This document shows, one piece after another, positions 15,218-48,087 of a stretch of 64,000 nucleotides of DNA. The notes under the pieces are model-generated. The model ran no database searches. It saw nothing but the letters and a program-made list of their open reading frames with translations, and was not told where the DNA came from. This stretch comes from an uncultured delta proteobacterium (GTDB lineage: Bacteria; Desulfobacterota; Syntrophorhabdia; Syntrophorhabdales; WCHB1-27), in contig CAWEPK010000008.1 of the NCBI GenBank assembly GCA_963810935.1, positions 224,001 to 288,000 on the forward strand. The letters run 5' to 3'. Position numbers and translations under genes: made by a program. Positions within the stretch are counted from its first letter, which is position 1, and every line of letters begins with the position of its first letter.

Positions 15218-16438
15218 CTATTTCTTCCGGTCTTTGAGTACCTCTTCGCAGCTCGACATGTAATCCTTTGCGGGGATCACCTGGTTTTCGGCCGAGATGA
15301 GGAAATCGGGGTACTTGGGATCTTTCTTGGTAACGCCCCAGTACATAGGCAGCTCAAGCTGGTGGTCGCAGGCCCGCATCGTCAGGGGACCGACCGGGCT
15401 GTCGACCGTCATACCTTCGAGAGCCTTGACAAACCGCTCCGTGTCCACTTTTCCCGCCTTCTTGAACCCCTCCGCTATGAACTCCGCAGTCATGTATCCG
15501 TAAAGCGCGCCGATGCGCGGATACCTGCTGTAAGCCTTCTGGAAGTCTGAAGCGAAGGCCCTGTTGGCAGGCGTATCCGGGTAATAAAAAAGGTAGTTCG
15601 ACGTGCCGAAGGCGCCTTCGGGTGCATTCGGCCCCTGCGCCATGAGCGTGGAGTGCTCGTTGGCCGTATGCTGGTAGAAAGGCACCTTCTGGCTCAAGCC
15701 CGTTGCCTTGGCCGCCTTCTGGAAGTTCACCATGCCCGACCCGCCCGTCGCGACAATGAGGAAATCGGGTTTTGCGGCCATGATCTGCGTGATGTAAGGA
15801 GTAAAATCGGCCTCGCCGACCTTCCACCAGGACTGGCCCACGAGCTGTACGTTGGGCTTTAGCTTCTTCAGGTGGTTCCACACGCCGTCAGCGATAGCGT
15901 GGCCGTATTCATAGTCATCGCCCGCTATCCAGTACTTCACATACGGCTTCTTGGCAAGCATGAGGGCGGCGGCCTTCCCCGCCATCAGTGTGTTTTCGTT
16001 CATGTTGAAGACGTACCGGTGTCCCTTCTCGCCGATGATCTTATCGCTTTTCGCGAACGTAACGAAGAAGGGTACCTTCTCCTTCTTGGCGAAATCGGAG
16101 ACGGCAAGCGCCGTACCGCTGTTGATAGTGCCCATCAGTATGTCAACTTTCTCCTTCATCACGAGATCTTTCGCCATTGCGAGTCCGATGTCGGGCTTGA
16201 ATTTCTCATCGCGCGTCATGTACTCGATCTTCCTGCCCAACACCCCGCCTTTGGCGTTGATCTTTTCTACGGCCAGCTTGAAGCCGTCGAGGACATCCTG
16301 CGTGAAGCTCGTGGCCGGCCCGGAATACGTATCGACGATCCCGACCTTGATCGGCCCGGCCGCAAAGCAAAACGAAGCGGCAGAAAGAAGCCCGACCGAT
16401 AATCCAAGAACCAGTCCAACAACCATACTTTTTCGCAT
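15218..16438 (-). CDS. ABC substrate-binding protein, Liv/PBP1 type (aromatic-acid or amide binding group)
   Basis: Signal peptide, IKVGIVDTYSG, INAKGGVLGRKIE, DYEYGH, MRACDHQ. Confidence 0.9.
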   Translation of the reverse strand: MRKSMVVGLVLGLSVGLLSAASFCFAAGPIKVGIVDTYSGPATSFTQDVLDGFKLAVEKINAKGGVLGRKIEYMTRDEKFKPDIGLAMAKDLVMKEKVDILMGTINSGTALAVSDFAKKEKVPFFVTFAKSDKIIGEKGHRYVFNMNENTLMAGKAAALMLAKKPYVKYWIAGDDYEYGHAIADGVWNHLKKLKPNVQLVGQSWWKVGEADFTPYITQIMAAKPDFLIVATGGSGMVNFQKAAKATGLSQKVPFYQHTANEHSTLMAQGPNAPEGAFGTSNYLFYYPDTPANRAFASDFQKAYSRYPRIGALYGYMTAEFIAEGFKKAGKVDTERFVKALEGMTVDSPVGPLTMRACDHQLELPMYWGVTKKDPKYPDFLISAENQVIPAKDYMSSCEEVLKDRKK

Positions 16439-16683
16439 GATTTGCCCCTCTTCACTACGAATTCAGTTGCACCCCCGGCAACTGTCTGTTATGTTTCGGA
16501 CATTCTATCGGATATATCTTTGCATGTCCAGAAAAGCCGGCTGCGTACCGCCATACCCATACTCCCAGAGGCCAACAGGTCCAAAGGCCGGAGCGATTTC
16601 ATAGGTCGAAAATCGCCCCGGCCCCATATAAGCCGGAAAAACGTCTTTGCCCAAAGCGGCGGGTATATGAACCCGCCGATCGC

Positions 16684-17907
16684 TTACTTGCCGGCGCGCT
16701 GCTTCATAATCTCATCACAGCCAGGCAAATAATCCTTGCCTGCCACTGTGAGAAAGTCCGACCCTATGAGGAACGGATAGGATTTCGTCTTCTTCGTCAC
16801 CCCGTAATACATCGGGAGGATCAACTGGTGGTCGCAGGCCCGCATCTGGATGTTCCCTATAGGGCTGTCAACGGTCAAACCTTCCATGGCGTCGATGAAC
16901 TTCTCGGTATCGACCTTGCCTGCCTTCTGGTACGCCTTTGCCATCAACTGGACGGCCACATAGCCGTAAAACGCCGTGGACCCGGGCTGTCTCTTGTAAA
17001 CCCTCATGAACTCATCGACGAAGGCCTTGTTGTCCGGGATATTCGGATAGTAGAAGTGATAGCTCGAGCTGCCCATCACGCCCTCGGGCGCATCCATGCC
17101 GAGCGGCCGCAGGGCAAGCAGGTCGGTAGCGTAGTGCTGGTATATGGGTATCTTCTTCTCCAGTCCCATGGCCTTGACGGCCTTCAGGAAGTTGACGATC
17201 CCCCCGCCGCCCGCCGCGCTGATGATACAGTCCGGCTTCGACTGCAAAGCGAGCGTCATGTAAGGGGCCAGGTCGGTCTCGCCGACCTTCCTCCAGGATT
17301 GTCCGAGGAGCTGCACTTGCGGCTTGAGCGTCTTGAGGTGGCTCCACAGGGCCTCTGCGCACGCATGGCCGAACTCGTAGTCCTCACCCATGATCCAGAA
17401 CTTCGTGTAGGGCTTCTTGGAGAGGGCGAGCGCCGCGGCCCTGCCGATCATGGCCGTGTTCTCGTTAGTGTTGAAGACGTAGCGGTTGCCTCTCTCGCCC
17501 GTGATCTTGTCGCTCTTCGCATCGGTTACGATGAAGGCTATCTTTTCCTTCTTCGCAAACTCGGACATGGCCAGGGCGCCGCCGGAGTTCGTCGATCCCA
17601 TGATGATATCGACCTTCTCCCGCATCACGAGGTCCTTGGTCATCTCGAGGGCGATATCAGGTTTGAACTTGTCGTCCCGCCTTATGATCTCGACCTTCCT
17701 GCCTAGTATCCCGCCCTTCGCGTTCACATGGGCGGCACCCAGCTTAATGCCGTCGAGCACGTCTTCCGTGTAGGTCGTCGCCGGCCCGGTGTACGTGTCC
17801 ACAACACCGACCTTGAACACGGCCTGCGCATGGACGGCCCCGGCACCCGTCAGAAAACAGGCAAAAACGAAGCATAAAGCCGCAATCAATGACATCACAG
17901 TTTTCAT
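16684..17907 (-). CDS. ABC substrate-binding protein, Liv/PBP1 type (paralog of the adjacent gene)
   Basis: Same motifs (DTYTG, DDKFKPD, DYEFGH, MRACDHQ). ATG at 17907 follows GAGGAGG. Confidence 0.9.
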   Translation of the reverse strand: MKTVMSLIAALCFVFACFLTGAGAVHAQAVFKVGVVDTYTGPATTYTEDVLDGIKLGAAHVNAKGGILGRKVEIIRRDDKFKPDIALEMTKDLVMREKVDIIMGSTNSGGALAMSEFAKKEKIAFIVTDAKSDKITGERGNRYVFNTNENTAMIGRAAALALSKKPYTKFWIMGEDYEFGHACAEALWSHLKTLKPQVQLLGQSWRKVGETDLAPYMTLALQSKPDCIISAAGGGGIVNFLKAVKAMGLEKKIPIYQHYATDLLALRPLGMDAPEGVMGSSSYHFYYPNIPDNKAFVDEFMRVYKRQPGSTAFYGYVAVQLMAKAYQKAGKVDTEKFIDAMEGLTVDSPIGNIQMRACDHQLILPMYYGVTKKTKSYPFLIGSDFLTVAGKDYLPGCDEIMKQRAGK

Positions 17908-17952
17908 ACAGCCTCCTCTTTCATTACCCCTTTTCAATACAAAAACATCACG

Positions 17953-19716
17953 CTACTTTGCGCCCGCCTGCCTTTTGACCGGGCGCCCGCCATCCTTCTT
18001 CTTCTGCGGGCAGACGAAAAGGCACATCCCGCAGTTGACGCAAAGCCCCTCGTCCCGTTTGACCTTCTTTGCTTCCTCGTCGAAGATGAGGCCGGGACAA
18101 TCGAACAGCTTTACGCATATTTTGCAACCGTTGCACGTTGCGCTCAGGTCGAGGTCGTCGTAGTAGGCAGCTTTGCCCGCCTTCGAAAACAGCAGGCACG
18201 GGTGGCGCGCGATGACGGCGGCCGGCCCCCTGCCCTTCGATCGCATATAGTCCTGCGCCTCTTTGAGGGTTTTTATCATGAGAGGCGTATCGTACGGGTC
18301 GATTGTCCGGATGAACTCGACGCCCAGTCCCCGCACCGTTTCTTCGATTGAAACGCGATACTCGCTCTTGCCGTCGGCCCGCATTCCGCTCCCCGGCGTC
18401 GGTTGCATCCCGGTCATCGCCGTCGTGCCGTTATCCAGGATAACTGCGATGAACCGCTTGCCCGTATGCGCCGCGCCGTAGATCAGTGGAAGCGCAGCGT
18501 GGAAGAATGTGGAATCGCCGATAGTGGCAAGGATCGGCATCTCCTCGCCGTCCTGGTCGTAGGTTTCGAAGAATCCTGAGGCAAGGCTTATGCTGCCGCC
18601 CATGTCGACGCACGTATCGACTGCCCCCTGCGATGTTCCAAGGGTATAGCAGCCGATGTCTCCCGGAAATATGGCCTTGGGGAACGCCCGCCGCATTGCG
18701 TAAAAGGAGGACCTGTGGGGACAGCCCGCACAGAGCTTGGGAGGACGGGGCGGGAACGGCACGCTGCTCACAGCAGTTTCTATCGAGTCGTCGGCGGAGA
18801 ACCCGCGCGCCTTCAAGCCCGTCTCCCGCGCAACGTCCTGCACTATGGCACGCACTACGTCGTAGGTAAGCTCGCCCTGGCTGGGAACATGGCCCGTAGA
18901 CCTGCCCAAGACCTTCGTGCGGCCCGCTACGAGCGCCTCCAGCACCTCGTCCGTCTCCTCAAGGATGAGGATGCTGTCCACCGACTCCGCGAAACGGAGC
19001 AGGCCGGGTTGGCAAGGATATATCTGCGCCGCCTTGTAAAGCGAAACGCTTTTTTCGAGCCCGAGCTCCTGAAGCACGTCCATCGCGACGTTATATCCCA
19101 TGCCCGAAGAAATGACGCCCAGCTTTTTACCGCCGGACATCTTCACGCCCTCGTCGATAGCGCCTCCGGCAACGGGGGCGTCGAGGCTGATTGCCTCCCT
19201 CGCGTGGCTGACCCGGTGGGTAGACCTGAGCACGACGGGCCTGTGCGTCCGGACTGAATAGTCCAGCGCATAGGCTGCCAGCAGGCGCGCGTCTTCGGGA
19301 GAGGAGACGTCGAATACGGGAAAGCCGAACAGCATGGCGATAAGCCGGGAATCCTGCTCGGTCTGGGACGACTGCGGTCCCGGGTCGTCGCAGGAGATGA
19401 CGACCAACCCACCTTTGATCTTTACGTCCCTGCCCTTTATAAACGGGGTAAAGGCCACATTCAGCCCAACCTGTTTCATCATGCAGGCAACCTTCTTGCC
19501 GGCCATCGCGGCCCCGTAGGCAACCTCCATGGCAACCCGCTCGTTGACGGACCACTCTGTGTGAATCTCCCTGTTGAAGCGTTTCTTGAAATCGACCACG
19601 GCCGGCAGTATCTCCGAGCTGGGTGTGCCCGGATAAGCCGACGCGACCTCCAGCCCGGCCTCTACGAGACCGAGGGCTATCGCCTGGTTTCCGATCATAA
19701 CTTCTGTCTTGCTCAT
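17953..19716 (-). CDS. iorA: Indolepyruvate:ferredoxin oxidoreductase alpha subunit family
   Basis: GNQAIA, AYPGTPSSEI, WSVNE, MKQVGLNVA, LCAGCPHR, GDIGCY, IGDSTFFH and C-terminal 2x[4Fe-4S] motifs. Confidence 0.9.
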   Translation of the reverse strand: MSKTEVMIGNQAIALGLVEAGLEVASAYPGTPSSEILPAVVDFKKRFNREIHTEWSVNERVAMEVAYGAAMAGKKVACMMKQVGLNVAFTPFIKGRDVKIKGGLVVISCDDPGPQSSQTEQDSRLIAMLFGFPVFDVSSPEDARLLAAYALDYSVRTHRPVVLRSTHRVSHAREAISLDAPVAGGAIDEGVKMSGGKKLGVISSGMGYNVAMDVLQELGLEKSVSLYKAAQIYPCQPGLLRFAESVDSILILEETDEVLEALVAGRTKVLGRSTGHVPSQGELTYDVVRAIVQDVARETGLKARGFSADDSIETAVSSVPFPPRPPKLCAGCPHRSSFYAMRRAFPKAIFPGDIGCYTLGTSQGAVDTCVDMGGSISLASGFFETYDQDGEEMPILATIGDSTFFHAALPLIYGAAHTGKRFIAVILDNGTTAMTGMQPTPGSGMRADGKSEYRVSIEETVRGLGVEFIRTIDPYDTPLMIKTLKEAQDYMRSKGRGPAAVIARHPCLLFSKAGKAAYYDDLDLSATCNGCKICVKLFDCPGLIFDEEAKKVKRDEGLCVNCGMCLFVCPQKKKDGGRPVKRQAGAK

Positions 19717-20303
19717 ACCCTCACCCCACGCCGCGCTGCCGCGCGCCCGGCCTCGCTCCTTCCTTCCTCACATACCGCCCGGTTCATCTCGAAGAGCCTG
19801 GCCGGGACTTTGCGCCCGATTGCGCCGAGGATATTCTCGAAGACATACGGGCCGAAGGCGAAGTGCGAGAAGAAGCCGAGCATCGCCATGTTGGAGGCCT
19901 GTATAGCGCCGTGGCGGTTCGCGATGGCGTCCGCGTCGACGAAGTGCCACTCTATATCTCTTGACTCAAGCAGGGCGCGGACCGTTGGAGGCATCTCACG
20001 CCCCGCGGAGTTGATAATCGCAAGGCCGCCTCTCCTCAGGAAAGTCAGGTTGCGGTAAAATTCACTCTCTTCGAAGGAAAGGAGGGCGTCCGCGTTTTCC
20101 CTGCCCACGAAGGGGCTGCGGAAAGTGCCGATCTTCAACATCGAGACGACCGAGCCGCCCCTCTGGCTCATGCCCAGCTCATCGGAAGCCATCGCGTGGT
20201 ATCCCGCGGCGGTAGCTGTCTCTATAAGGACCGCCGACGCGAGGAGCACGCCCCTTCCGCCTACGCCCGAGCAGACAATCTCCCACTTTGACGGCCGTTT
20301 CAT
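19713..20303 (-). CDS. iorB: Indolepyruvate:ferredoxin oxidoreductase beta subunit family
   Basis: GVGGRG, GMSQRGGSV, NMAMLG. Confidence 0.88.
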   Translation of the reverse strand: MKRPSKWEIVCSGVGGRGVLLASAVLIETATAAGYHAMASDELGMSQRGGSVVSMLKIGTFRSPFVGRENADALLSFEESEFYRNLTFLRRGGLAIINSAGREMPPTVRALLESRDIEWHFVDADAIANRHGAIQASNMAMLGFFSHFAFGPYVFENILGAIGRKVPARLFEMNRAVCEEGRSEAGRAAARRGVRV

Positions 20304-21514
20304 AAATCACCTTCGTGCAGAAGCACGGTAAGGCGTGCCTCGCGCTTGTATTTCCCGATGTCGCCGGACGACGCCAGCCGCACGATATGCTCGAAGCCGA
20401 AGCCCCGGAGCGCATCCGAGACCGTCTTTTCCATACCGTTCGTCTTTATTGCGAGCAGGTAGTCCGATCCGTTATAGATCGTGTTGACGAACGCGGCCAG
20501 GCCCGAATGGAGGAAGGAGCCCGCGTCGGTAACTGCAAGGATATTCCTGGCCCCCGCTTTTGCCATGCCATGGGCGATGTTTATCGACGATGCCGGACCG
20601 AGACGGTCCCTGATGACGGTAAGGCCCGAAAGCTTCCCGCCTGATGCCGGCCTCTCGCCTTTTTCGGCACGCGCCGGTGTGCCTTTGCAGAGCCGCCCAT
20701 CAATTCCGCCCATGCGCAATTGCACCTCAATGCCCGGATAAGCCCCTTCGATGACCTGCACTCGTTTCATGTCAGCAGCAAATTGCGACACAAGGCGGAC
20801 GGGCAGCGGGAAGACCGACCCAAGGGAAAGGACGCTCGCGTTTTGTGACATCTCTTCAGTGCAGGCCCGGTGTGTCAGCACGCCTTGCGTCCCTCTGACG
20901 TTCATCACGTTCCCGGCGTACGTCTCGAACTCGTCGCGAATGCGCTCTATCTTTGCATTCAACGCCTTATGGAGCTGGTACCTGAATTTCGGTATTGCGG
21001 CCCACCGCCCCGTGTCTTTCACGAAAGCGGAAGCCCCGTCAGCCGCCGCCGCCTTCCGCCGCGTGATGCCTTCAGGCGGGAGTGTCTCGACAATGCAGGG
21101 CATCTCGTATCTCGCCGACAGGTCGAACGCAAACGACAGGGCGGACGACAGGTCGCGGGCCGTCCCGTCCGACACCAGGATGGGGAGCTTCGAGAACGGT
21201 CCGAGGGGCGTCGCATCCAGGGGCCCCTCCTTGACGCAGACCACGACGAAGGCGCCCTTCACGCCCGTATAAGCAGAGCTCATAAGCGGGTCGAGCGCAT
21301 CGTAAAGGCCTTCGACGGAGAAGAGGCAGGCGGTCTTTTTCGCGGCATACGACCCGGCAAGGGCCATCTCGTATGCCGCCTGCTCGTTGACGCACGATTC
21401 AAAATGCACGCCCGGCGGCGCCTTGCCGGCTAAATCCGGCATGCCCGCAGTATAGACGAGCCTGGGTCCGAACGAAAGTATCAGATTGAAAAGGTTGGGG
21501 TACATGGATGTCAT
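20300..21514 (-). CDS. Shortened, divergent IorA-like protein
   Basis: ESCVNEQAAYEMALAGS, DPLMSSAYTGVKG, DAGSFLHSGL. Lacks YPGTP, CxGCPH, GDIGCY and the ferredoxin domain. Confidence 0.75.
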   Translation of the reverse strand: MTSMYPNLFNLILSFGPRLVYTAGMPDLAGKAPPGVHFESCVNEQAAYEMALAGSYAAKKTACLFSVEGLYDALDPLMSSAYTGVKGAFVVVCVKEGPLDATPLGPFSKLPILVSDGTARDLSSALSFAFDLSARYEMPCIVETLPPEGITRRKAAAADGASAFVKDTGRWAAIPKFRYQLHKALNAKIERIRDEFETYAGNVMNVRGTQGVLTHRACTEEMSQNASVLSLGSVFPLPVRLVSQFAADMKRVQVIEGAYPGIEVQLRMGGIDGRLCKGTPARAEKGERPASGGKLSGLTVIRDRLGPASSINIAHGMAKAGARNILAVTDAGSFLHSGLAAFVNTIYNGSDYLLAIKTNGMEKTVSDALRGFGFEHIVRLASSGDIGKYKREARLTVLLHEGDL

Positions 21515-21548: not shown

Positions 21549-23273
21549 TCACTTGCGCGGCCTTTTCCGGCCGCGCAGCGCTCTGGTGGCCTTGACGTCT
21601 GCTTTCATCGAGACAGGGTCGATTACCACCCCGTACTCGCTCTTTGCTGCTTCGACGGAGACATAACCTTCCGCTACGTCGCTCTCCACCATCTCCGGGT
21701 CTCTCTCGAACGGCTCCCCGTAACCGCCGCCGCCGGGCGCGTCTATCGTTACAACGTCGCCGGGGACAAGCTGCGTGAGGCCGTAAGGGTTGCCGGGGGT
21801 GGTATTCACCAGAAACCGCGCGCGCGCTCCGGGACGCCCTCCGAAAAGGCCCTCCGGCGGATAGACGTACCGCCCCGACTGCATCCCGAGGTTCACGGGA
21901 GGCACGGGCGCGTAGGCATCGTTGGGGACTTTGAAGACGATCCTCTTGCCAAGACCGCCCTTCATCCTTCCCGGCCCTGCGGAGTCGGATAGAAGCTCCC
22001 TTCTCTCGACGATCAGGGGCGTATCGCTCTCGAAAATCTCCACCGGGGTGCCCGCGCCGTTCGCCGGGAATATGTACACGTAATTGCCGTCGTTCGAGCT
22101 GCCGGCGCCCATGCCGCCGCCCCTTATGACTACCGAGTGCCACGGCCTGCCGTTGTTCCTCTTTCCGTAGAAGACGTTCATTACCGCAGGAGTGCCTCCG
22201 CTCGCCGCTATCACCTTGGACGGCATGGCGGAGGACAATGCCCTGTAAATGATCTCCGTGAGGAAGTGGCCTATCACGAGCCGGGCTGCGACCGCCGCAG
22301 GGAAGCGGCAATTGACGACGCTCCCTTCCGGCGCCGTAAGGTGGAGAGGCTTCGCGCACCCGTCGTTATTCGGGATGTCGGGACCGAACATGCTCTTCAT
22401 CGCCATAAAGACATACGCATAGGTAAAGTTGAACACTACGTTGCCGCCCCAGTTGACCTGCGGCGAGGAGCCGGAGAGGTCAACGCTGATGTCGCTCCCC
22501 TTCACCCTTACTGCGGCTTTTATGACGACGTCGCCGCTGCCTTTCGTCTGCTCCACGATGCCTTCAGCCCGGTAGAGCCCGTCCGGGACTTTGGCGATCT
22601 CTTCCCGCATGCTCTTTTCCGTTCGGCCGATGATCTCGTCCGCAAGGTCGTCCAGGTCGGACAGGTGGTTCTCCCTGAGCATCCGGCCTACTTTGTCGGC
22701 GCACACGTGGTTGGCCGCAATCTGCGACCGTATGTCGCCTATCACTTCATCGGGGGTCCGGACGTTCCACCGGATCATTTCCATCACCGACTCGTTAAGG
22801 ACGCCGCCGTCATACAGCTTTACGAGAGGGATGAAAAGGCCCTCTTCGAAAACGTCGTGGTTGTCCGACGAGACGCGGCCGCCGATATCGGAATGATGGA
22901 AAACGCACGCGGTAAAGGCGACGACCTTGTGCTCGTAGAATATCGGACTCATGACGCAGACGTCGTTCAGGTGGCCCGCAAGCGCCCACGGGTCGTTCGT
23001 TATGAAAACGTCGCCCGGCTTATACTCGCTGACCGGCGTGCGCATCACCAGGTTCTTGATCCCCAGCGCCATCGCGCCCGACTGGCCCGGCGTCGCAAAG
23101 CTCCCCTGCGCAAGCTCGCGCCCTTTGCGGTCGGTGAACATGCAAGTGTAATCGTGCGCGTCGCGCAGCAGGCTCGAAAAAGCCGTGCGGGCGACCGTGC
23201 CGTCCGCTTCATCCACTATCGATATCAGCCTTCGCCAGAGTATTTCCAGCGTAATCGGATCGAAAGACGCCAT
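21549..23273 (-). CDS. Hydantoinase B/oxoprolinase family subunit
   Basis: DPITLEILW, RTAFS, PGDVFITNDPW, GHLND, HHSDIGG, PGGGGYG. Start taken at MASFDP. Confidence 0.92.
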   Translation of the reverse strand: MASFDPITLEILWRRLISIVDEADGTVARTAFSSLLRDAHDYTCMFTDRKGRELAQGSFATPGQSGAMALGIKNLVMRTPVSEYKPGDVFITNDPWALAGHLNDVCVMSPIFYEHKVVAFTACVFHHSDIGGRVSSDNHDVFEEGLFIPLVKLYDGGVLNESVMEMIRWNVRTPDEVIGDIRSQIAANHVCADKVGRMLRENHLSDLDDLADEIIGRTEKSMREEIAKVPDGLYRAEGIVEQTKGSGDVVIKAAVRVKGSDISVDLSGSSPQVNWGGNVVFNFTYAYVFMAMKSMFGPDIPNNDGCAKPLHLTAPEGSVVNCRFPAAVAARLVIGHFLTEIIYRALSSAMPSKVIAASGGTPAVMNVFYGKRNNGRPWHSVVIRGGGMGAGSSNDGNYVYIFPANGAGTPVEIFESDTPLIVERRELLSDSAGPGRMKGGLGKRIVFKVPNDAYAPVPPVNLGMQSGRYVYPPEGLFGGRPGARARFLVNTTPGNPYGLTQLVPGDVVTIDAPGGGGYGEPFERDPEMVESDVAEGYVSVEAAKSEYGVVIDPVSMKADVKATRALRGRKRPRK

Positions 23274-39181: not shown

Positions 39182-40372
39182 TCAGATGACCTCTTTATTT
39201 TTCATCTCTTTGATCTGTTCATCGGAATATCCCAGCACCTTCCCGTAAATCTCAGCGTTATGCTCACCGAACCTCGGCGGGAACGACATTGTCCGGCTGT
39301 TCTCTGTGAGGAACGCGGTCATGTGCGGCGGCGGCGCCATCCATATCTTCGTGCCGGTCACAGGGTCCGTGGCGGTGAGCATCGACTTCGAAACCAGCGT
39401 GTCCTCCATGACGTCTTTTATCGTGTTGACCCTCGATATGGGAATGGTCGCCTTGTTGAAAACCTCGATTATATCGTCGGTGGTACGGGTGCGCGTACAA
39501 CTGTTTATCTGCTCGTTCAGGCTTATTACGTCCGCGATCCTGCCCTTGTTCTTCTCGTATTCGGGCCGCGCCAGCTTCTCGAAGCCCGGTAATTGCGTGA
39601 AGGAAACCCACTGGCGGTCGTTCCCTACCGCTATGTAGACGTATCCGTCTTTCGTTTCGTAGACTGAAACGGGGGAAAAGAACTCGTGCGTATTGCCTCT
39701 GCGCGTCACCTTCGTGCCGAAGGACTTGGCTAGGCCCAAGGCCACCGTGAGCCAGGACGTGGTGGACATGAACATCGAAACGTCGATCCTCTCGCCCTCT
39801 CCTGTCAGCGCCCGCTTGCAAAGCGCCTTCATAATCAGGCCGTAACCGTGCTCGCTCGTCCCCATGTCCGGAAGCGGGATACCGAGGACCTGCGGGTCCC
39901 CGCCCGCATTCCCCGTAAGCTCCATCAGGCCCCCTCTCGCCTGGAGGATGGGATCGTAAGCCGCCTCGTTGCTTTCCGGCCCGAAGCCCGTGAGGCCCAT
40001 CCAGATGAGGTCCGGCTTGACCGCTTTGAGCGATTCGTAGTCTACGCCGAGCTTTTCGTAGTTGCGCGGGAGCTGGTTCGTCGCGAAGATATCGACGTTC
40101 ATCTTCACGATCATTTCCTTGAGCAGCTTCCGCCCTTCCGGCGATCCCAGGTTGAGGGTAACGGCTTTCTTTCCCGCGTTTATCGTAAGGAAATAAGCGT
40201 TCATCTTCTCTTCGCCGAGCCTGTTATCGCCGATCTGCCGGTTCGGGTCACCGAATACCGGGTGCTCCAGCCTGATAACACGCATGCCGTCCATTGCGAG
40301 CCTGTAGCTCAGATATGGCAATACGGTGGCCTGCTCCAGCGAGAGCATCGTCATATTCCTGAAAACGTCCAT
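39182..40372 (-). CDS. Class III CoA-transferase (CaiB/BaiF family)
   Basis: GDPNR, NAGKKAVTLNL, AYDPILQARGGLM, PLPD (catalytic Asp region), YETKDG, PRFGEHN. Confidence 0.92.
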   Translation of the reverse strand: MDVFRNMTMLSLEQATVLPYLSYRLAMDGMRVIRLEHPVFGDPNRQIGDNRLGEEKMNAYFLTINAGKKAVTLNLGSPEGRKLLKEMIVKMNVDIFATNQLPRNYEKLGVDYESLKAVKPDLIWMGLTGFGPESNEAAYDPILQARGGLMELTGNAGGDPQVLGIPLPDMGTSEHGYGLIMKALCKRALTGEGERIDVSMFMSTTSWLTVALGLAKSFGTKVTRRGNTHEFFSPVSVYETKDGYVYIAVGNDRQWVSFTQLPGFEKLARPEYEKNKGRIADVISLNEQINSCTRTRTTDDIIEVFNKATIPISRVNTIKDVMEDTLVSKSMLTATDPVTGTKIWMAPPPHMTAFLTENSRTMSFPPRFGEHNAEIYGKVLGYSDEQIKEMKNKEVI

Positions 40373-40741: not shown

Positions 40742-41743
40742 ATGAGACTGCCCCCTTTCCAATACCTATCGCCGGGGAAAGTGAAAGAGGCTCTGCAGAT
40801 GCTGCACGACCACAAGGGAAGCGTGTGCATGAGCGCCGGCGGGACAGACATCGTGAGCCGTCTGCGGCAGAGGCTCGTTGCCCCGCGCTACCTGATGAGC
40901 CTCAAGAACGTGCCGGAGTTGAAGGGCATCAAAAAAAAGAAGAACGAGCTTGTCATATCCGCCGGGACGAGCCTGCGGGACATCGCGGAGGACCCGGATG
41001 TCGGCTTGCTTTTCGGCGCCCTGGCAGTCTCGGCCGGTCTGGTCGCCGCCTCGCCCATCCGCAACATCGCAACTATCGGGGGCAATATCCTTCAGGATAC
41101 GAGGTGCCTCTTACGTAACCAGTCGGAGCTGGTCCGCGACGCTGCGCCTGCATGCCTGAAACAAGGCGGGAAAGCCTGCCTCGCGCAAAAAGGCGCAACC
41201 CGGTGCCTCTCCGTCTACCAGGGCGACCTGGCGCCGGTCCTCATCGCCTTCGACGCCAAGGCCGTGCTGAAAAAACTCGGCTCGTCCAGGACAGCCCCCG
41301 TATCGGAGCTTTTTTCCGGCAAAGGGAACCAGCCGTTTGCAGTGGAAGACGACGAGCTTCTCACCCAGGTTATCATCCCCGTGCAGCACGGGCATTACGC
41401 CGCTGCCTATAAAAAACTGCGGATGCGCACAGGGCTCGATTATCCCTTCGCCGCTGCTGCGGCCTTCGTCTCTCTCTCTGCTAAGGGTGTGATCGACCGG
41501 GCGCGCCTTGTCGTCGGCGCTGCCGGTCCGGCCCCCGTGATAGTCGAGGAGGCGGCCTCCATTCTTAAAGGGCGCGCGCCTGCGGAAGCGGACCGCGAGG
41601 CGGCTGCGGCCTGCGCGCTCAAAGCCGCAAAGGTGATAGACAACCTCCCCCTCCCCGCTGATTACAGGAGAAAAATGGCGAAGGTGGCGGCGCGCCGGGC
41701 CATCGATGATGCGCTGGGCGCTATCTCAGGGGCGGGTGCGTGA
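40742..41743 (+). CDS. FAD/[4Fe-4S] subunit, 4-hydroxybenzoyl-CoA reductase beta (HcrB)-like
   Basis: AGGTD, IRNIATIGGN, then a four-Cys insertion DTRC..NQS...CLKQGGKAC...TRC. Confidence 0.85.
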   Translation: MRLPPFQYLSPGKVKEALQMLHDHKGSVCMSAGGTDIVSRLRQRLVAPRYLMSLKNVPELKGIKKKKNELVISAGTSLRDIAEDPDVGLLFGALAVSAGLVAASPIRNIATIGGNILQDTRCLLRNQSELVRDAAPACLKQGGKACLAQKGATRCLSVYQGDLAPVLIAFDAKAVLKKLGSSRTAPVSELFSGKGNQPFAVEDDELLTQVIIPVQHGHYAAAYKKLRMRTGLDYPFAAAAAFVSLSAKGVIDRARLVVGAAGPAPVIVEEAASILKGRAPAEADREAAAACALKAAKVIDNLPLPADYRRKMAKVAARRAIDDALGAISGAGA

Positions 41744-42231
41744 TGGCCAAGTCAGAGAAAATAATGGTGAAGCTGCGGGTTAACGGCGAGGATTATTCTT
41801 TACTGATCGTCCCCCATCTGACGCTTCTTGAAGCACTGCGCGAAGAGCTGCACCTGACGGGTGCCAAGGAAAGCTGCGGCCGCGGCGCCTGCGGGACCTG
41901 CACGGTACTCCTCGACGGCCTGCCGGTGCGTTCCTGCCTGCTCCTTGCGGCGGAAGCGGAAGGCAGGGAGGTTACGACGATAGAAGGGCTCGGCAAAAAA
42001 GGAGCGCTCCACCCCCTGCAGGAGGCGTTCGTCGCCCACCACGCGATACAATGCGGTTTCTGCACGCCCGGAATGATCCTGACGGCCAAGGCGTTCCTCG
42101 ACAAGAACCCGGACCCGACGGAAGAAGAAATACAGATGGCCCTTTCCGGCAACGTCTGCCGCTGCACCGGCTATACGAAAATCGTCGAAGCAGTCAAGGC
42201 TGCGTCCGCCAAGGCCGGCGGAGGTAAGTAG
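41743..42231 (+). CDS. [2Fe-2S] subunit, xanthine dehydrogenase family (HcrC-like)
   Basis: GAKESCGRGACGTCTV, QCGFCTPG, GNVCRCTGY. Confidence 0.94.
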   Translation: MAKSEKIMVKLRVNGEDYSLLIVPHLTLLEALREELHLTGAKESCGRGACGTCTVLLDGLPVRSCLLLAAEAEGREVTTIEGLGKKGALHPLQEAFVAHHAIQCGFCTPGMILTAKAFLDKNPDPTEEEIQMALSGNVCRCTGYTKIVEAVKAASAKAGGGK

Positions 42232-42238
42232 CGAAATT

Positions 42239-44522
42239 ATGGAAGAACTCTCTATCATAGGGAAGAGCGAGGGCGGAAGGGTCGATACTGCGGCAAAAGC
42301 GACGGGCGAGGCCCTCTTTTCCGCGGACCTCTCTCTGCCCCGCATGCTCGTAGGCAAAGTACTCCGCTCCCCTCATGCCCACGCCCGCATCGTCAGCGTC
42401 GATACGTCGAAGGCCGAGCGGCTGCCCGGCGTACGCTCTATCGTGACATCGGCTGACAGCACAGGCGAGAAGTGGGGCGTCTTCCGCTATACGCAGGACC
42501 AGGCGTTCCTGCCAGCCGACAAGGTCCGCTTCATAGGGGAAGAGGTTGCCGCAGTCGCGGCAATAGACGAAGACACGGCGCTCGAAGCCCTGAAGCTTAT
42601 AAAAGTCGAATACGAGGAGCTGCCCGCCGTCTTCACGATTGAAGAAGCGATCAAGCCGGGCGCGGTCCTCATACATGACACGAACCCCGGCAACATCAAC
42701 GTACACGTCAAGATAGACGTGGGCGACGTCGATAAGGGTTTTTCCGCTTCCTATCTTGTCAGGGAGGATACGTTCAACGCTCCGGAGGAGTCTTATTTCC
42801 AGGCCGAGCCGTACGCGGTCGTCGCCTCCTTCGACAGCTCGGGCAACCTCGAGATATGGATGCCGAACGCCGGCCCTCACCTGAAGGCGAAGCCCCTTTC
42901 AAACTGCCTGCGGATGCCCCTCAACAAGGTCAGGGTAAGAAAAATCACGATCGGCGGGGCCTTCGGCGGCAGGTCGGAGATATCGCCCGCCGACGTAATC
43001 TGCGCGCTCCTTGCCCGCAAAGCCGGCGTACCGGTGAAGCTCGCTTACACGAGAGAAGAAAATACGGTTGCGACGCGCCAGGCCCACGGCATGATCGTGA
43101 AGATAAAAACGGGCGTGGACCGGGAAGGCCGCGTCGTAGCGAGGGACCTCACCTGCCACATGGACGGAGGCGCTTATTCCAGCACGGGGCCTATCGCCAC
43201 GAGCGTGCCATTCCTCTGCATGGAGCAGGCGTACCGGATGGAAAACGTCCGCTACAACGGCTACCGCGTCTTCACGAACAAGCCGATAAGGGGCATGTAC
43301 AGGACGCACGGACGCGCCTTCGCCTCCGGCGTCGATTTGCAGCTCGATATGATCGGCGAGGAAATGGGCATCGACCCCGCCGAGATCAGGATCAGGAACG
43401 CGCGCCAGGCCGGCGACTACACCCCTACGAAATCGCTCGTCGTGAGCTGCGCCATGACGGAGACCATCGAGCGCGCGTGCGACGCCGCCGGCTGGAAGGA
43501 GAAGTGGGGCAAGCTCCCGCCCTTCCATGGTATCGGCATAGGGTGCAACTCGGTCCAGACGGGCTTTCCCATGGGCATAAGGGGCGGCTCTTCCGCCTTT
43601 ATCAAATTCAACGAGGACGGCGGCGCCACGGTCATATCGGGTGTCGTTGACAACGGGCAGGGCAATGAGAACATGCTCGTCCAGATCGCGGCCGAAGAGC
43701 TGGGGATACTGCCCGAAGACATACAGCCTCATCAGCGCGGATACCGAGGTGACGCCGAGCGACCCCGGCTCGTACTCAATGTGCGAGACCTTCGTCGGCG
43801 GCAACGCGGTGAGGCTCGCGGCGAAGGACGCGAAAGAGAAGCTTTTCAAGTTCGCGGCGCGCGCCCTTGAGTCGAAGCCGGAAGACCTCGCCGCCAGGGG
43901 AAGGAAGATCTTCGTAAAGGGAGAGCCGGAAAGGTCGATACCCTTTACCAAGGCAGTCCGCATGGCCCTTTCCAAGGGTGAGTCGATAGCCGGCGAAGGC
44001 TCTTACTGGCCCAAAGTCGACCCGAGGCGCGAGTGGGTAGATAACCCGGTCGGGCAGCTCAGCGAGGCCTTCTCCTTCGGCACGACTATCGTCGAGGTGA
44101 AAGTGGACCCGGAAACGGGACTTGTGGATGTTATAGAGGCCTGGGCCGCGCAGGACGTGGGGCGCGCCCTCAACCCGAAGATCGTGGAAGGGCAGTTCGA
44201 AGGCGGCCTTGCGATGGGCGGACAGGGCGGCATGCTGACTGAATTCCATGTCTTTGACCGTGGGAGGTGCCTCAATCCGGACCAGATGGACTACGGGGTG
44301 CCGCTTGCCCCCGACATGCCGAAGATCAACTCGATCATCGTCGAGAGCAACGACCCCGCCGGGCCTTACGGCGCCAAGGAGGCAGGCATGTCTATCGCCA
44401 TGTCTGCGGCACAGGCTTACGTCTCGGCCGTCTGCAACGCCATAGGGGCGCCGATCACGGAGTACCCGCTCACCCCGGACAAGGTCTTAGCTGCGATAGA
44501 GCGAAAGGGTAAAAAGGGCTGA
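42239..44522 (+). pseudogene. Molybdopterin-binding subunit (HcrA-like), split by a +1 frameshift at ~43727 (real lesion or sequencing error)
   Basis: ORF 42239-43870 (GGAFGGRSE, DNGQG) joins ORF 43641-44522 (ADTEVTP.D.G, QDVGRALNP, GPYGAKE) when one C is removed from atacagCCtcatc. Confidence 0.87.
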
Positions 44523-44527: not shown

Positions 44528-44959
44528 ATGCAGGTCCAGAAGATCGACCACATATGCTTCGCCGTAGCCGACCTGGAAAAGACAAAGCGCATATACAGCG
44601 AAAACCTTGGTATGAAGCCGGACCTCGAGTACGTAGCCGACTCCGAGCACATCAAAGTGGCGCGTTATTACGTCGGCGGGGTGGCGATAGAGTTCATGGA
44701 GCCTACGAGCCGGGATTGTGATGTAGCCAAGTTTATAGAACAAAGGGGTGACGGCGCGTTCCTCATTTCGTACCGCGTCGATAACCTCGAGACCGCGTTG
44801 GAAGAGCTCAAGGCCAAGGGAGCGAAACTGATAGACGAAAAGCCTAGGGAGCTTTTCGGAAACCGATACGCCTTTATACAGAAGCCAAGCGAGATGGCAG
44901 GCGTACTGGTGGAGCTTCTGGACGGGGAGTTCGACCCGAGCCAGGTAAAGCGCACGTAG
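44528..44959 (+). CDS. VOC-superfamily protein, methylmalonyl-CoA-epimerase-like
   Basis: KIDHICFAV, IEFMEP, VAKFIEQRGDG, LIDEKPR, GVLVEL. Confidence 0.8.
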   Translation: MQVQKIDHICFAVADLEKTKRIYSENLGMKPDLEYVADSEHIKVARYYVGGVAIEFMEPTSRDCDVAKFIEQRGDGAFLISYRVDNLETALEELKAKGAKLIDEKPRELFGNRYAFIQKPSEMAGVLVELLDGEFDPSQVKRT

Positions 44960-45051
44960 AACCGGCAAAGAGAAGCCGGATACGAAAGGGTCGTCGGGCC
45001 TTCCTTTTTGGGCCGCCATGACCGGTTAATAAAATATAGGGGGTAATTATA

Positions 45052-46293: not shown

Positions 46294-46776
46294 ATGAAGT
46301 ATCTCGATTACGCGACCGTCATAATCAACAAGGTGCTGCTCGTTTGTGGCGGCATCGCAGTGCTTGCCCTTATGCTCCTCGCTACGGGCAACGTACTCCT
46401 GAGGATCCTCCATTTCCCTTTCAGGGGGACATACGAGATCGTCTCCTTTCTCGGGGCCATCGTCATCTCCTTTGCCCTGGGATACACCGTGAAAAGAAGG
46501 GACCACATCGTAGTGGATATCCTTTCGGAGAAGTATCCCGCAGTGCTCGCAAAAATTATCGACACCATCGCCGATATCGCCGTCGCGATATTCTTCGCCA
46601 TCGTCGCCTGGCAGATGTACGTATGGGGCATGAAGATCTGCGACGAAAGCGAGGTCTCCGAAACGCTCAAGATCATTTATTATCCGTTCGTCTTTGCGTG
46701 TGCCCTGGGTTTCGCTGCGCTCTCCTTCAACGCGCTGGTCGATTTCTTAAAGAAAATAAGCGGACGGGAGGCATAG
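46294..46776 (+). CDS. dctQ: TRAP small permease
   Basis: Four hydrophobic segments, GTYEIV, HIVVD. Confidence 0.9.
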   Translation: MKYLDYATVIINKVLLVCGGIAVLALMLLATGNVLLRILHFPFRGTYEIVSFLGAIVISFALGYTVKRRDHIVVDILSEKYPAVLAKIIDTIADIAVAIFFAIVAWQMYVWGMKICDESEVSETLKIIYYPFVFACALGFAALSFNALVDFLKKISGREA

Positions 46777-46779
46777 ACG

Positions 46780-48087
46780 ATGAGCGGCCCTATGATAGGC
46801 ATTTACGGCATTCTCGTAATGTTCGCGGTGCTCTTCCTGCTCCGCATACCCGCCGGCTTCACGATGGCGATCGTAGGATTTCTCGGCGTCGCCTACGTAA
46901 CGTCGTTCAAGGCGGCTTTCGGCCTGATCGGCACCGATATGTGGAATATCTTCTCGAACTACGGCCTGACGGTCATCCCCATGTTCATTCTGGTGGGCGA
47001 GTTCGTCCACTACGCAGGCTATAACAACGGGCTTTATCACGCCACGTACAAGTGGTTCGGCCACTATAAAGGCGGCCTCGCCATAACGACCATCATGGCC
47101 TGCGCCGCTTTTTCGGCCATATCCGGCAGCAATACCGCGACCGCCGCGACGATGAGCTCGGTGGCTATACCGGAGATGCGGAAGTACAAATACCACCCGC
47201 AGCTCAACGCCGGGTCAGTTGCCGCAGGGGCGACGCTCGGGGTGCTAATACCGCCCAGCATCGTTCTCGTTGTCTACGGTCTCTATACCGGCCAATCGAT
47301 AGGCAAGCTCTTTTTCGGCAACGTCATACCGAGCGCCATACTGACCGTGCTGATCGCGTGCACTGTCTTCTACATCTGCTGGCGCCACCCCGACTGGGGC
47401 CCCGCCGCGGAAAAGAGCACCTGGAAAGAACGTTTCAAGGCGCTGCCCGACATCATCGACATCCTTATCCTGTTCGCCATAATAATGTACGCCCTCTTCA
47501 CCGGCGTCGTAACAGCCACCGAGGCCGCAGCCGCAAGCTCGACGCTCGGTCTTGCTATCTGTCTCGTCCGCAGGAAGATAACATGGCATGGCTTTATCAC
47601 GTCGATACTCGACACGCTCCGCATCTCCTGCATGGTCTTCATGATCGTCGCGGGCGCCGTTATATTCGGCCGTTTCCTCACCGTGACGAGGCTGCCCTTC
47701 GAGATAGCGGGGATCATAGGCGGCCTCAACATGCCGGGCTGGATGCTTTTGTGGGTTATCCTGATTTGCTACATCATCGGCGGCTGCGTGATGGACGCGC
47801 TGGCTTTCCTGCTTGTTTCGCTGCCGATCTTTTATCCCCTCGTGATGCAGCTCGGTTACGATCCGATCTGGTTCGGCCAGGTTATCTGCATAGTGACGAC
47901 CATGGGCTCGATCATGCCGCCCATAGGCATATGCTGTTACGTGGTGGCAGGCATGGCCAAGGACATACCTCTGGGTACCGTGTTCAGGGGAGGACTCTAC
48001 TACATACCGTCCTATATAATATCGATCATATTGTTGATGCTATCACCGTATTGGACGGTCCTCGTCTTATCGAACCTGGTGAGATAG
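46780..48087 (+). CDS. dctM: TRAP large permease
   Basis: IPMFIL, AISGS, LGVLIPPS, TATEAA, PPIG. Confidence 0.93.
   Translation: MSGPMIGIYGILVMFAVLFLLRIPAGFTMAIVGFLGVAYVTSFKAAFGLIGTDMWNIFSNYGLTVIPMFILVGEFVHYAGYNNGLYHATYKWFGHYKGGLAITTIMACAAFSAISGSNTATAATMSSVAIPEMRKYKYHPQLNAGSVAAGATLGVLIPPSIVLVVYGLYTGQSIGKLFFGNVIPSAILTVLIACTVFYICWRHPDWGPAAEKSTWKERFKALPDIIDILILFAIIMYALFTGVVTATEAAAASSTLGLAICLVRRKITWHGFITSILDTLRISCMVFMIVAGAVIFGRFLTVTRLPFEIAGIIGGLNMPGWMLLWVILICYIIGGCVMDALAFLLVSLPIFYPLVMQLGYDPIWFGQVICIVTTMGSIMPPIGICCYVVAGMAKDIPLGTVFRGGLYYIPSYIISIILLMLSPYWTVLVLSNLVR

Follow-up and report, generated by a model that had tools for sequence, protein, structure and literature searches.

An iaa-type catabolic gene cluster with an adjoining EtfBA-FixCX set and a second, Hcr-like molybdenum enzyme in an uncultured Syntrophorhabdales bacterium

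Positions 15218 to 48087 of a 64,000-nucleotide stretch of DNA from an uncultured delta proteobacterium (contig CAWEPK010000008.1; C8:224001-288000 of the analysed genome, G000, and hereafter called the window) probably constitute an iaa-type catabolic cluster, one that would let an anaerobic, benzoyl-CoA-degrading member of the Thermodesulfobacteriota oxidise indole-3-acetate. The genome comprises 4.06 Mb in 21 contigs (93.5% complete, 7.1% contamination); the nearest named relatives of the host are metagenome-assembled genomes (MAGs) of the Syntrophorhabdales, and Oah, the ring-cleaving hydrolase of the benzoyl-CoA pathway, is encoded in it (530.9 bits against a cut-off of 464.45). Indoleacetate is a plant hormone and a universal product of tryptophan breakdown, and to our knowledge only a few denitrifiers have revealed what becomes of it in anoxic soil and sediment; the iaa cluster of Aromatoleum, reportedly the subject of work by Ebenau-Jehle et al. 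2012 and Schuhle et al. 2016, is said to serve its anaerobic degradation. Judged from its sequence, the cluster described here is of this known kind and not the undescribed system that the initial annotation of this DNA had proposed: according to passages of PMC8360864, iaa operons with an electron transfer flavoprotein (ETF) of their own have already been reported in strict anaerobes, and the present cluster goes beyond those passages in lineage and architecture. A further, joint proposal is offered with reserve, and we consider it doubtful as a whole: that the second molybdenum enzyme (40742-44522) is a deaminating 2-aminobenzoyl-CoA reductase, and that the acyl-CoA dehydrogenase (ACAD) gene together with EtfBA-FixCX encodes the missing physiological electron outlet of IaaF. 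In what follows, Mo1 and Mo2 denote molybdenum enzymes 1 and 2, L numbers related loci, G numbers sampled genomes, and X1-X4 contigs from metagenome runs.

The assignment draws first on the dehydrogenase, which is encoded as follows:

36957..38111, minus strand: IaaF-type acyl-CoA dehydrogenase (benzylmalonyl-CoA dehydrogenase class), three Acyl-CoA_dh domains

Its probable start is the ATG at 38105, and its C-terminal part contains LLYGGGTHEI and includes, towards the end, RFLLYGGGTHEI. The GGG aligns onto the YEG of the solved butyryl-CoA-type dehydrogenases 5OL2_C and 5LNX_A, and the protein lacks the catalytic Glu of that motif. Residues G363-G365 are invariant in all 20 cluster-borne homologues compared (40-100% identity). 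Among the seven dehydrogenase paralogues of the same genome, five carry YEG, FEG or VEG, and two, in which the C-terminus differs, show neither motif. In passages of PMC8360864, GGG is described as the hallmark of the benzylmalonyl-CoA dehydrogenase IaaF, all members of the subclass having it and being encoded with other iaa genes. The window dehydrogenase shares the motif, and the iaa partner genes (mutase, CoA-transferase, hydantoinase pair, ligase and molybdenum enzyme) all lie with it within 25 kb on one strand; motif and conserved gene set together support the iaa-like assignment made in the initial annotation. In a profile search covering 1.84 billion representative sequences, six clusters with an FLL[YFW]GGG-type context were seen among the 26 top-ranked rows inspected at the C-terminus, and the pattern GGG[TSAC]xE[IVL] occurred somewhere in the protein in 21 of the 150 listed matches. 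The best 120 dehydrogenase homologues are all close relatives; ten cluster look-ups named MAG proteins only, with no named Aromatoleum member, and a tblastn search for Aromatoleum Iaa sequences on plasmids returned only generic dehydrogenases of at most 40.9% identity. As a separate observation, a second GGG-type paralogue, 51-52% identical, stands directly upstream of the main copy and behind MeaB in two genomes (L089/L118 of G372 and L090/L119 of G396); in G372 the match contains one in-frame TGA.

Family calls on the window proteins were made with Pfam and NCBIfam profile models, with equivalog cut-offs applied, and 55 frames were scanned across the whole window. By these searches, about 28 genes at 15218-48087 encode all of the enzyme families listed in the initial annotation, including the IorAB-like, MeaB, EtfBA-FixCX, epimerase-like and second-molybdoenzyme genes that it had regarded as additions to the iaa set. 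The co-directional cluster of about 25 kb that it had described is likewise present: 21 minus-strand genes with short gaps run from 40372 down to 15218, and a plus-strand unit at 40742-48087 holds the flavin adenine dinucleotide (FAD), 2Fe-2S and Mo subunits of Mo2, the epimerase-like gene and TRAP DctPQM. In order of transcription, the minus-strand genes encode a family III CoA-transferase, MeaB, the ACAD, EtfB, EtfA, FixC, FixX, a GntR/FCD regulator, the small and large mutase subunits, a PaaK-like ligase, the FAD, 2Fe-2S and Mo subunits of Mo1, hydantoinases A and B, a 404-amino-acid IorA-like protein, the IorB-like and IorA-like proteins and two Liv-type proteins. The partner genes of the dehydrogenase, with the MeaB gene among them, are:

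39182..40372, minus strand: family III CoA-transferase (IaaL-like role), CoA_transf_3 at 256 bits, all equivalog models below cut-off
38218..39168, minus strand: MeaB GTPase (mutase chaperone), TIGR00750 at 264.1 bits, above the cut-off of 240.75
32234..32656, minus strand: B12-binding small subunit of the mutase, B12-binding domain, TIGR00640 at 142.2 bits
30517..32145, minus strand: large subunit of the B12 acyl-CoA mutase (IaaG/H-like role), MM_CoA_mutase at 572.7 bits
29184..30566, minus strand: PaaK-family aryl-acetate CoA ligase (IaaB-like role), AMP-binding and AMP-binding_C_2, PaaK model at 405 bits with a cut-off of 646.3
28158..29120, minus strand: Mo1 FAD subunit without the HcrB-type insert, FAD_binding_5 and CO_deh_flav_C
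27680..28147, minus strand: Mo1 2x[2Fe-2S] subunit, Fer2_2 and Fer2
25374..27683, minus strand: Mo1 Mo-binding large subunit (proposed pyrrole-ring hydroxylase), MoCoBD_1, MoCoBD_2 and Ald_Xan_dh_C
23275..25377, minus strand: hydantoinase A-type subunit (IaaC-like role), Hydantoinase_A, Hydant_A_N and Hydant_A_C
21549..23273, minus strand: hydantoinase B-type subunit (IaaE-like role, with ATP-dependent opening of a lactam as its presumed function), Hydantoinase_B at 494.7 bits

No window protein attains the equivalog score of another characterised enzyme, the models passed being MeaB and generic mutase domains only. The mutase large subunit reaches 434.1 bits with the methylmalonyl-CoA mutase equivalog (cut-off 876) and the generic domain models are passed at 528 and 142.2 bits, as befits a two-subunit enzyme distinct from methylmalonyl-CoA mutase; the MeaB protein, which scores above its equivalog cut-off and recurs in L118, L119 and L133, fits the part of a chaperone of this B12 mutase. 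Hydantoinases A and B score 523.6 and 246 bits with the caprolactamase CapA and CapB models, for both of which the cut-off is 1000. The Mo1 large subunit scores 597 bits with XdhA (cut-off 780) and 626 with HcrA (cut-off 995); its best solved relative is HcrA (1RM6_A, 457.8 bits; next 304.1), and that of the Mo1 FAD subunit is a CO dehydrogenase flavoprotein. Grouping with unrelated characterised enzymes, which the initial annotation had named as the outcome to look for against its proposal, was thus not observed, the scores with the caprolactamase, methylmalonyl-CoA mutase, XdhA, HcrA and PaaK models all lying below their cut-offs. Two starts differ from the listed frames. The start of hydantoinase B was corrected from 23492 to the ATG at 23273, which stands behind AAGGAGG and one base past the hydantoinase A stop, and alignments with its relatives begin no earlier than about residue 76 of the long frame; the true ligase start is probably 17-30 codons downstream of the listed GTG, because relatives align from query residue 17-30. 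The hydantoinase pair we take to be IaaC/E; as for any gene letter used here outside the set B, F, GH, L, M, Q, R and D, this lettering follows the initial annotation or the general background on the pathway.

The gene set is kept together in many genomes of the Thermodesulfobacteriota, as the synteny check suggested in the initial annotation had called for. Hydantoinase B has at least 554 relatives in a species-genome collection, the best 80 of which (64-97% identical) were taken as related loci; these 80 come almost all from MAGs labelled Deltaproteobacteria, Thermodesulfobacteriota, Syntrophorhabdales, Syntrophaceae, Desulfatiglandales or Desulfobacteraceae, and 35 of them are long loci. 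The order recurring in the long loci is (GntR, MutS, MutL), Lig, MoM, MoS, MoL, HydA, HydB, or DctPQM, Lig, MoMSL, HydAB, where MutS and MutL are the small and large mutase genes, Lig the ligase, MoM, MoS and MoL the molybdenum-enzyme subunits and HydA and HydB the hydantoinases; the recurring full order is CoA-transferase, ACAD, EtfB, EtfA, FixC, FixX, GntR, MutS, MutL, HydA, HydB (then Lig, MoM, MoS, MoL). We also fetched 38 neighbourhoods of dehydrogenase homologues, 28 at 51% identity or more and 10 at 40-47%. All 20 neighbourhoods at 72-88% identity hold ACAD, EtfB, EtfA, (FixC) and FixX; the CoA-transferase gene adjoins the dehydrogenase gene in 13 of them, and 11 run on into the mutase genes, usually behind GntR, with HydA and HydB next where the stretch reaches. 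All ten homologues at 40-47% identity are GGG-type and stand with ETF genes, most of them also beside mutase, hydantoinase, ligase and molybdenum-enzyme genes. In five genomes, orthologues of Mo1 and of the ligase were found at 63-72% and 67-69% identity, respectively; in four of these they share the contig of the cluster, which they directly follow in G195 and G021, whereas those of G092 lie on a different contig. The co-occurrence of the cluster genes is not due to chance, the same genes being found together in the 35 long loci and the 38 neighbourhoods. Of 400 species genomes sampled from the phylum, 101 contain a match to the dehydrogenase at E<=1e-90, and in 57 the identity is at least 51%; an IaaF-type gene occurs in no fewer than 67 of the 400, some of which are as small as 1.5-1.9 Mb.

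The ACAD-EtfBA-FixCX unit stands alone beside housekeeping genes in L121 (next to rpoD, dnaG, groEL and dnaJ), L123, L127, L129, L131 and L135, some of these genomes being only 1.5-1.8 Mb in size (G085, G119); in four of the five such genomes searched, mutase and hydantoinase orthologues are clustered elsewhere. Two side observations concern L005. Immediately after its first hydantoinase pair, this locus has a further hydantoinase A gene and a further hydantoinase B gene on either side of a TRAP system, a glyoxalase-fold gene and a gene for a 466-amino-acid protein that has no Pfam hit (11716-20966); in addition, a fused 3-hydroxyacyl-CoA dehydrogenase/enoyl-CoA hydratase gene and a second type of ligase gene lie between the mutase and hydantoinase A genes.

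These families suggest a route whose order of chemistry is that of the initial annotation, namely hydroxylation, lactam opening, CoA activation, rearrangement and decarboxylating oxidation, an order that the present analysis supports. The substrate would be taken up by TRAP DctPQM and/or the Liv-type binding proteins. Mo1 would hydroxylate the carbon next to the ring nitrogen; its HcrA-like large subunit would suit a CoA-thioester substrate, its FAD subunit being of the ordinary kind. The hydantoinase pair would open the oxindole lactam with ATP to give (2-aminophenyl)succinyl-CoA, the family III CoA-transferase would move CoA between the two carboxyl groups, and the two-subunit B12 mutase, serviced by MeaB, would rearrange the product to (2-aminobenzyl)malonyl-CoA. 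An epimerase-like protein would match the stereocentre for the IaaF-type dehydrogenase, whose oxidative decarboxylation would yield 2-aminocinnamoyl-CoA; the electrons of this step would pass to the EtfAB of the cluster, then to FixCX and the quinone pool. Beta-oxidation enzymes encoded elsewhere would lead to 2-aminobenzoyl-CoA, from which Mo2, as an Hcr-type reductase with an extra [4Fe-4S] site, might strip the amino group with reduced ferredoxin and so form benzoyl-CoA. The units are probably under the control of a GntR/FCD repressor acting at GTATAC-N-GTATAC operators, and in this lineage only, an Ior-like oxidoreductase may add an indolepyruvate entry and/or supply reduced ferredoxin. 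The genes of the transport, electron-transfer and epimerase steps are:

45052-46077, plus strand: TRAP DctP, DctP domain
46294-46776, plus strand: TRAP DctQ, DctQ domain
46780-48087, plus strand: TRAP DctM, DctM domain
36009..36791, minus strand: ETF beta (small) subunit, ETF domain
35023..36000, minus strand: ETF alpha (large) subunit, ETF and ETF_alpha domains
33725..35020, minus strand: FixC-type flavoprotein (ETF:quinone oxidoreductase-like), NF007450 at 379.5 bits with a cut-off of 466
33450..33728, minus strand: FixX-type ferredoxin-like protein, NF011993 FixX at 59.8 bits, below cut-off, and Pfam Fer4_ETF_QO
44528..44959, plus strand: methylmalonyl-CoA-epimerase-like glyoxalase-fold protein, Glyoxalase_4, TIGR03081 at 89 bits with a cut-off of 114.95

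DctPQM stands immediately upstream of the ligase gene in many related loci. According to passages of PMC8360864, the IaaF of A. aromaticum, filed as CAI07262 / WP_011236983, did not react with the single housekeeping ETF, and its physiological acceptor was left as unknown. In the present lineage, FixCX follows the ETF genes in 23 of the 28 neighbourhoods whose dehydrogenase is at least 51% identical and in none of the ten of the 40-47% class; EtfAB-FixCX is a candidate for a complete encoded route from IaaF to a quinone reductase and offers a concrete candidate for the re-oxidation of IaaF, a point that the published enzymology has left open. The epimerase-like gene lies beside the Mo2 large-subunit gene in L120, L134, L140, L142, L143 and L146. 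It has a direct rationale because IaaF is stereospecific and uses one enantiomer only, methylmalonyl-CoA epimerase having been reported to epimerise benzylmalonyl-CoA and thereby restart the reaction.

The second molybdenum enzyme was called Hcr-like in the initial annotation, a label that is borne out by its best matches to HcrA and HcrB of 4-hydroxybenzoyl-CoA reductase (Hcr) and by a four-cysteine insert. Its subunits are:

40742..41743, plus strand: Mo2 FAD subunit with an HcrB-type four-cysteine insert, best solved relative 1RM6_B, TIGR03195 at 203.3 bits with a cut-off of 404.55
41740..42231, plus strand: Mo2 2x[2Fe-2S] subunit, Fer2_2 and Fer2
42239..44522, plus strand: Mo2 Mo-binding large subunit, in two overlapping frames, 42239-43870 and 43641-44522

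The best solved relative of the large subunit is HcrA (310 bits against 234 for the next), and the match between the FAD subunit and HcrB spans an insert of some 40 residues in which four Cys align. Insert and cysteines are kept in all 12 Mo2 orthologues, hence in 13 of 13 copies with that of the window, and are missing from the two Mo1-type homologues aligned with them (rows L145_2 and L146_8), as they are from the Mo1 FAD subunit of the window. The cysteines of the HcrB loop hold an extra [4Fe-4S] cluster that passes electrons from ferredoxin towards the molybdenum, as expected of a reductase. Mo2 is not filed as a 4-hydroxybenzoyl-CoA reductase because its scores lie well under the Hcr equivalog cut-offs (alpha, with a cut-off of 994.55: 440.3 and 209.1 bits for its two frames; beta, with a cut-off of 404.55: 203.3; gamma, with a cut-off of 257.8: 177).

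The gene for the Mo2 large subunit is intact in the population. In five relatives, the open frame is single, with 761-766 amino acids in three and with 942 and 964 amino acids, extending upstream of the gene, in the other two; the two pieces in the window meet at residues 491-498 of the relatives' frame. The contigs X1-X4, which come from four soil-metagenome runs of one study, each with 0.65-0.81 of the sampled words, all omit one letter, at 43727, the sole insertion or deletion over 3.9 kb; the first frame ends a codon at 43726 and the second begins one at 43728. We therefore attribute the split to one extra base in the window. In the genome as a whole, the HcrA-family model has 19 matches, to about 14 xanthine-dehydrogenase-family large-subunit genes (contigs C7, C8 and C10), four of which, three besides Mo2, appear to be in two or three pieces; these split genes suggest occasional single-base assembly errors. 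As a further side observation, in L120 (1472-3571) genes for a CoxE-like VWA protein and a MoxR-type AAA protein, possibly maturation factors of molybdenum enzymes, adjoin the epimerase and Mo2 genes, and no counterpart of them was seen in the window.

Mo2 is strongly linked to the pathway. In 12 of the 38 fetched neighbourhoods its genes either diverge from the CoA-transferase gene or follow Mo1 directly, and five genomes in which Mo2 is not adjacent have a clear orthologue at 57-78% identity (next paralogue at most 43%). In the 400-genome sample, the Mo2 large subunit is present in 72 genomes, including 46 of the 57 with a dehydrogenase at least 51% identical; a dehydrogenase match at E<=1e-90 is found in 63 of the 72, with about 18 co-occurrences expected under independence, a condition that the relatives do not satisfy. 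In 22 genomes with 12 family codes, the Mo2 and dehydrogenase genes lie on one contig within 26.6 kb. This iaa-type context leads us to expect an aromatic CoA thioester different from that of HcrCAB, and 2-aminobenzoyl-CoA, the iaa end product, is proposed. We know of no identified enzyme for the reductive deamination of this compound, and no paper tying an Hcr-like enzyme to it was found in the Creative Commons literature. In passages of PMC7500099, Hcr-like proteins of Desulfatiglans anilini induced on aniline and 4-aminobenzoate are suspected to be 4-aminobenzoyl-CoA reductases.

That Mo2 reductively removes the amino group of 2-aminobenzoyl-CoA is nevertheless a possibility that we place somewhat short of even. 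It is set against a slightly better than even prospect that Mo2 has another role, as the true hydroxylase of the pathway, as an ordinary 4-hydroxybenzoyl-CoA reductase in an aromatic island, or as a reductase acting on another intermediate. HcrA is the best solved relative of both molybdenum enzymes, so either could bind a CoA thioester, and nine of the sampled Mo2 genomes lack a dehydrogenase match, which favours such a role. A hydroxylase is at odds with the four-cysteine insert in every copy, which in Hcr is the ferredoxin electron input and points to a reductase; the equivalog scores given above and the conservation of its place, beside the CoA-transferase gene or behind Mo1, across 12 family codes also speak against the other roles. 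If Mo2 is truly a deaminating reductase of 2-aminobenzoyl-CoA, it would link the breakdown of indoleacetate and anthranilate to the benzoyl-CoA pathway in strict anaerobes.

The units of the cluster may be controlled by one regulator, which is encoded between FixX and the mutase genes in most neighbourhoods. The regulator and the operator-like sites in the window are:

32728..33435, minus strand: GntR/FCD transcription regulator, GntR and FCD domains
32670..32682, no strand: palindrome GTATAC-N-GTATAC, operator-like, in the gap from gntR to the mutase genes, also present there in L001, L002, L003, L014 and L036
40502..40514, no strand: palindrome GTATAC-N-GTATAC, between the divergent CoA-transferase and Mo2 genes, likewise found there in L120 and L126
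56901..56913, no strand: palindrome GTATAC-N-GTATAC, upstream of the saccharopine-dehydrogenase-like (55690-56835, minus strand) and class III aminotransferase (54381-55646, minus strand) genes

The palindrome was found by eye and pattern search, and an inverted-repeat finder run over 40360-40750 reported nothing. Its three sites in the window correspond to seven strand-wise matches within three mismatches, against 0.82 expected, and none of 100 shuffles reached seven. It stands upstream of the CoA-transferase gene also in L118 and L119, and in its exact form it occurs in 18 of the 157 related loci, at the same promoter positions where gene maps exist. We infer that GTATAC-N-GTATAC is the operator of the GntR/FCD regulator of the cluster, a prediction that the cluster itself offers; the saccharopine-dehydrogenase-like/aminotransferase pair may belong to the same regulon, for example as an entry route for an amine or amino acid.

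At its downstream end, the minus-strand unit carries genes that set this lineage apart:

20300..21514, minus strand: 404-amino-acid IorA-like paralogue between hydantoinase B and IorB, no Pfam hit, without Fe-S motifs, matching IOR_alpha positions 46-298 at 128.3 bits
19713..20303, minus strand: IorB-like subunit, Pfam POR at 105.2 bits, all IorB equivalogs below cut-off
17953..19716, minus strand: IorA-like subunit of a 2-oxoacid:ferredoxin oxidoreductase, with thiamine pyrophosphate and 2x[4Fe-4S], TIGR03336 IOR_alpha at 506.3 bits with a cut-off of 650.9
16684..17937, minus strand: Liv-type periplasmic binding protein 2, Peripla_BP_6 at 250.8 bits
15218..16438, minus strand: Liv-type periplasmic binding protein 1 (presumed IaaM-like role), Peripla_BP_6 at 280.7 bits

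The IorA-like translation has two C-terminal CxxCxxCxxxCP motifs. Both subunits fall below the IorAB equivalogs, IorA as listed and IorB with 118.9 bits in its best model against 237. The 404-amino-acid protein resembles the N-terminal part of IorA and may be a third subunit of the Ior-like enzyme; its family has 342 detected relatives, mostly unnamed and called 'hypothetical' or 'IorA', one of them a 'hypothetical protein' from Syntrophorhabdus aromaticivorans that is 46% identical. The Ior-like genes and the two binding proteins stand beside the cluster in only three of the 80 related loci (L001, L002 and L070) and are a lineage-specific accessory. The initial annotation suggested that IorAB could feed indoleacetyl-CoA into the pathway; the genes are present, and this distribution leaves the case for a general entry route weak.

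The same genes bear on the substrate, which with the same enzyme logic could be tryptophan, via indolepyruvate and the Ior-like enzyme, or a ring-substituted indole-3-acetate or related N-heterocyclic acid. We consider this improbable, although IorA, IorB and the third IorA-like gene follow directly behind hydantoinase B, the operator-like site also precedes the pair at 54381-56835, and all equivalog scores lie below cut-off, so that sequence fixes no substrate. The Ior genes are rare and the PaaK-like ligase is almost always there in the related loci, which makes activation of the free acid the general entry; moreover, from the pathway as drawn in PMC8360864 (Fig. 1), an arylsuccinyl-to-arylmalonyl rearrangement is expected specifically from the opening of 2-oxoindole-3-acetate. 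A chance neighbourhood of housekeeping modules (purine or nicotinate dehydrogenase, 5-oxoprolinase, methylmalonyl-CoA mutase/MeaB/epimerase for propionate, and a beta-oxidation ACAD-ETF) is very improbable and already largely refuted: the MeaB score, the resemblance of the epimerase-like protein to methylmalonyl-CoA epimerase and the lone ACAD-EtfBA-FixCX units of some small genomes would agree with it, but the mutase, molybdenum enzymes and hydantoinases lie below the housekeeping equivalog cut-offs, the dehydrogenase lacks the YEG glutamate, the whole set is syntenic in dozens of genomes, four of five lone-unit genomes have clustered mutase and hydantoinase orthologues elsewhere, and the units have operator-like sites in common.

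Several points weigh against the reading of the region as an indole-3-acetate cluster with the electron outlet and reductase proposed above. Neither an enoyl-CoA hydratase nor a thiolase gene was found among the 55 frames of the window, in agreement with the initial annotation, and no 3-hydroxyacyl-CoA dehydrogenase gene is in the window either; elsewhere in the genome, the beta-oxidation candidates are paralogues of a generic kind, none of them more than 40% identical to the fused L005 enzyme. The orthology to Iaa proteins rests on one motif, GGG, and on gene context. The nearest clusters in a feature-based Atlas search are named 'isovaleryl-CoA dehydrogenase', a name that we rejected because solved isovaleryl-CoA dehydrogenases score no better than those of the butyryl-CoA type (261 against 264 bits) and because that class, according to passages of PMC8360864, has GAG and not GGG. 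A simple ETF-to-quinone route would not be established by these sequences, the best solved relatives of both ETF subunits being bifurcating ETFs (6FAH, 4KPU and 5OL2), with small margins over non-bifurcating ones (beta 136.1 against 119.0 bits, alpha 215.4 against 182.3). Mo2 is absent at threshold from 11 of the 57 dehydrogenase genomes, and a dehydrogenase match is absent from nine of the 72 Mo2 genomes, including the 98%-complete G354, so that Mo2 is not exclusive to the pathway. G047, the fifth of the lone-unit genomes searched, has a dehydrogenase 76% identical and yielded neither a hydantoinase B nor a mutase orthologue. The related genomes are not independent of one another and the co-occurrence counts overstate the association, and among the sequencing runs listed as containing the stretch there is no RNA run.

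The cluster is flanked by genes of other functions. The upstream flank (1-14866 of the window) holds three consecutive RND efflux systems, with OEP, HlyD-type and AcrB-type genes, that adjoin the catabolic cluster. The downstream flank carries a second TRAP system together with genes for a cupin-HTH regulator and an SDR, the class III aminotransferase and saccharopine-dehydrogenase-like genes, and a GntR gene with a Liv-type ABC system. Just past the TRAP genes, a frame of 375 amino acids (48393-49520) has no Pfam or NCBIfam match and no counterpart by tblastn in 118 related loci (L001-L080, L118-L137 and L140-L157).

Among known systems, the iaa cluster of Aromatoleum aromaticum EbN1 and A. 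evansii, treated also by Schuhle et al. 2021 (PMC8360864), has the same families: the ligase IaaB, IaaC/E, a GGG-type IaaF, IaaGH, IaaL, IaaM, a regulator and a molybdenum dehydrogenase. The likeness is known from families, motif and context. The window differs in having EtfBA-FixCX behind the dehydrogenase, in adding MeaB, the epimerase-like gene, TRAP transport, the Hcr-type Mo2 and the lineage-specific Ior-like genes, and in holding no beta-oxidation genes. Strict anaerobes, too, have iaa operons by prediction (Desulfatiglans anilini, strain NaphS2, Desulfocarbo indianensis and Ferroglobus placidus), which, according to passages of PMC8360864 citing Schuhle et al. 2016, hold an ETF paralogue beside iaaF. 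They share with the window a GGG-type IaaF orthologue that stands with a dedicated ETF and other iaa genes, and they belong to lineages of the sulfate-reducer type within the same phylum. The 40-47% identity class found here (L140-L146 and L155-L157) has an ETF and no FixCX, whereas the class of the window (51% or more) adds FixCX behind the ETF in most neighbourhoods. Relative to the PMC8360864 passages, the new features are FixCX after EtfBA, MeaB, the epimerase-like gene, the palindrome and Mo2, and no paper linking iaa genes to Syntrophorhabdus was found in the Creative Commons literature.

The electron-transfer genes recall EtfABCX/FixABCX (e.g. of Thermotoga maritima, 7KOE), which has the same four-gene set of EtfB, EtfA, FixC and FixX and whose chains are among the solved relatives of both ETF subunits, but in the window an acyl-CoA dehydrogenase gene immediately precedes the set, in a fixed arrangement. 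Mo2 shares with HcrCAB of Thauera aromatica (1RM6/1SB3) the three subunits, HcrA and HcrB as best solved relatives and the four-Cys insert in the FAD subunit, and differs from it in that all three subunits lie below the equivalog cut-offs; it is a candidate for the reductive deamination of 2-aminobenzoyl-CoA by an Hcr-type enzyme with a ferredoxin-input cluster. Taken with the frequency of the IaaF-type gene in the 400-genome sample, these comparisons describe an iaa-type set that is common in one anaerobic phylum.

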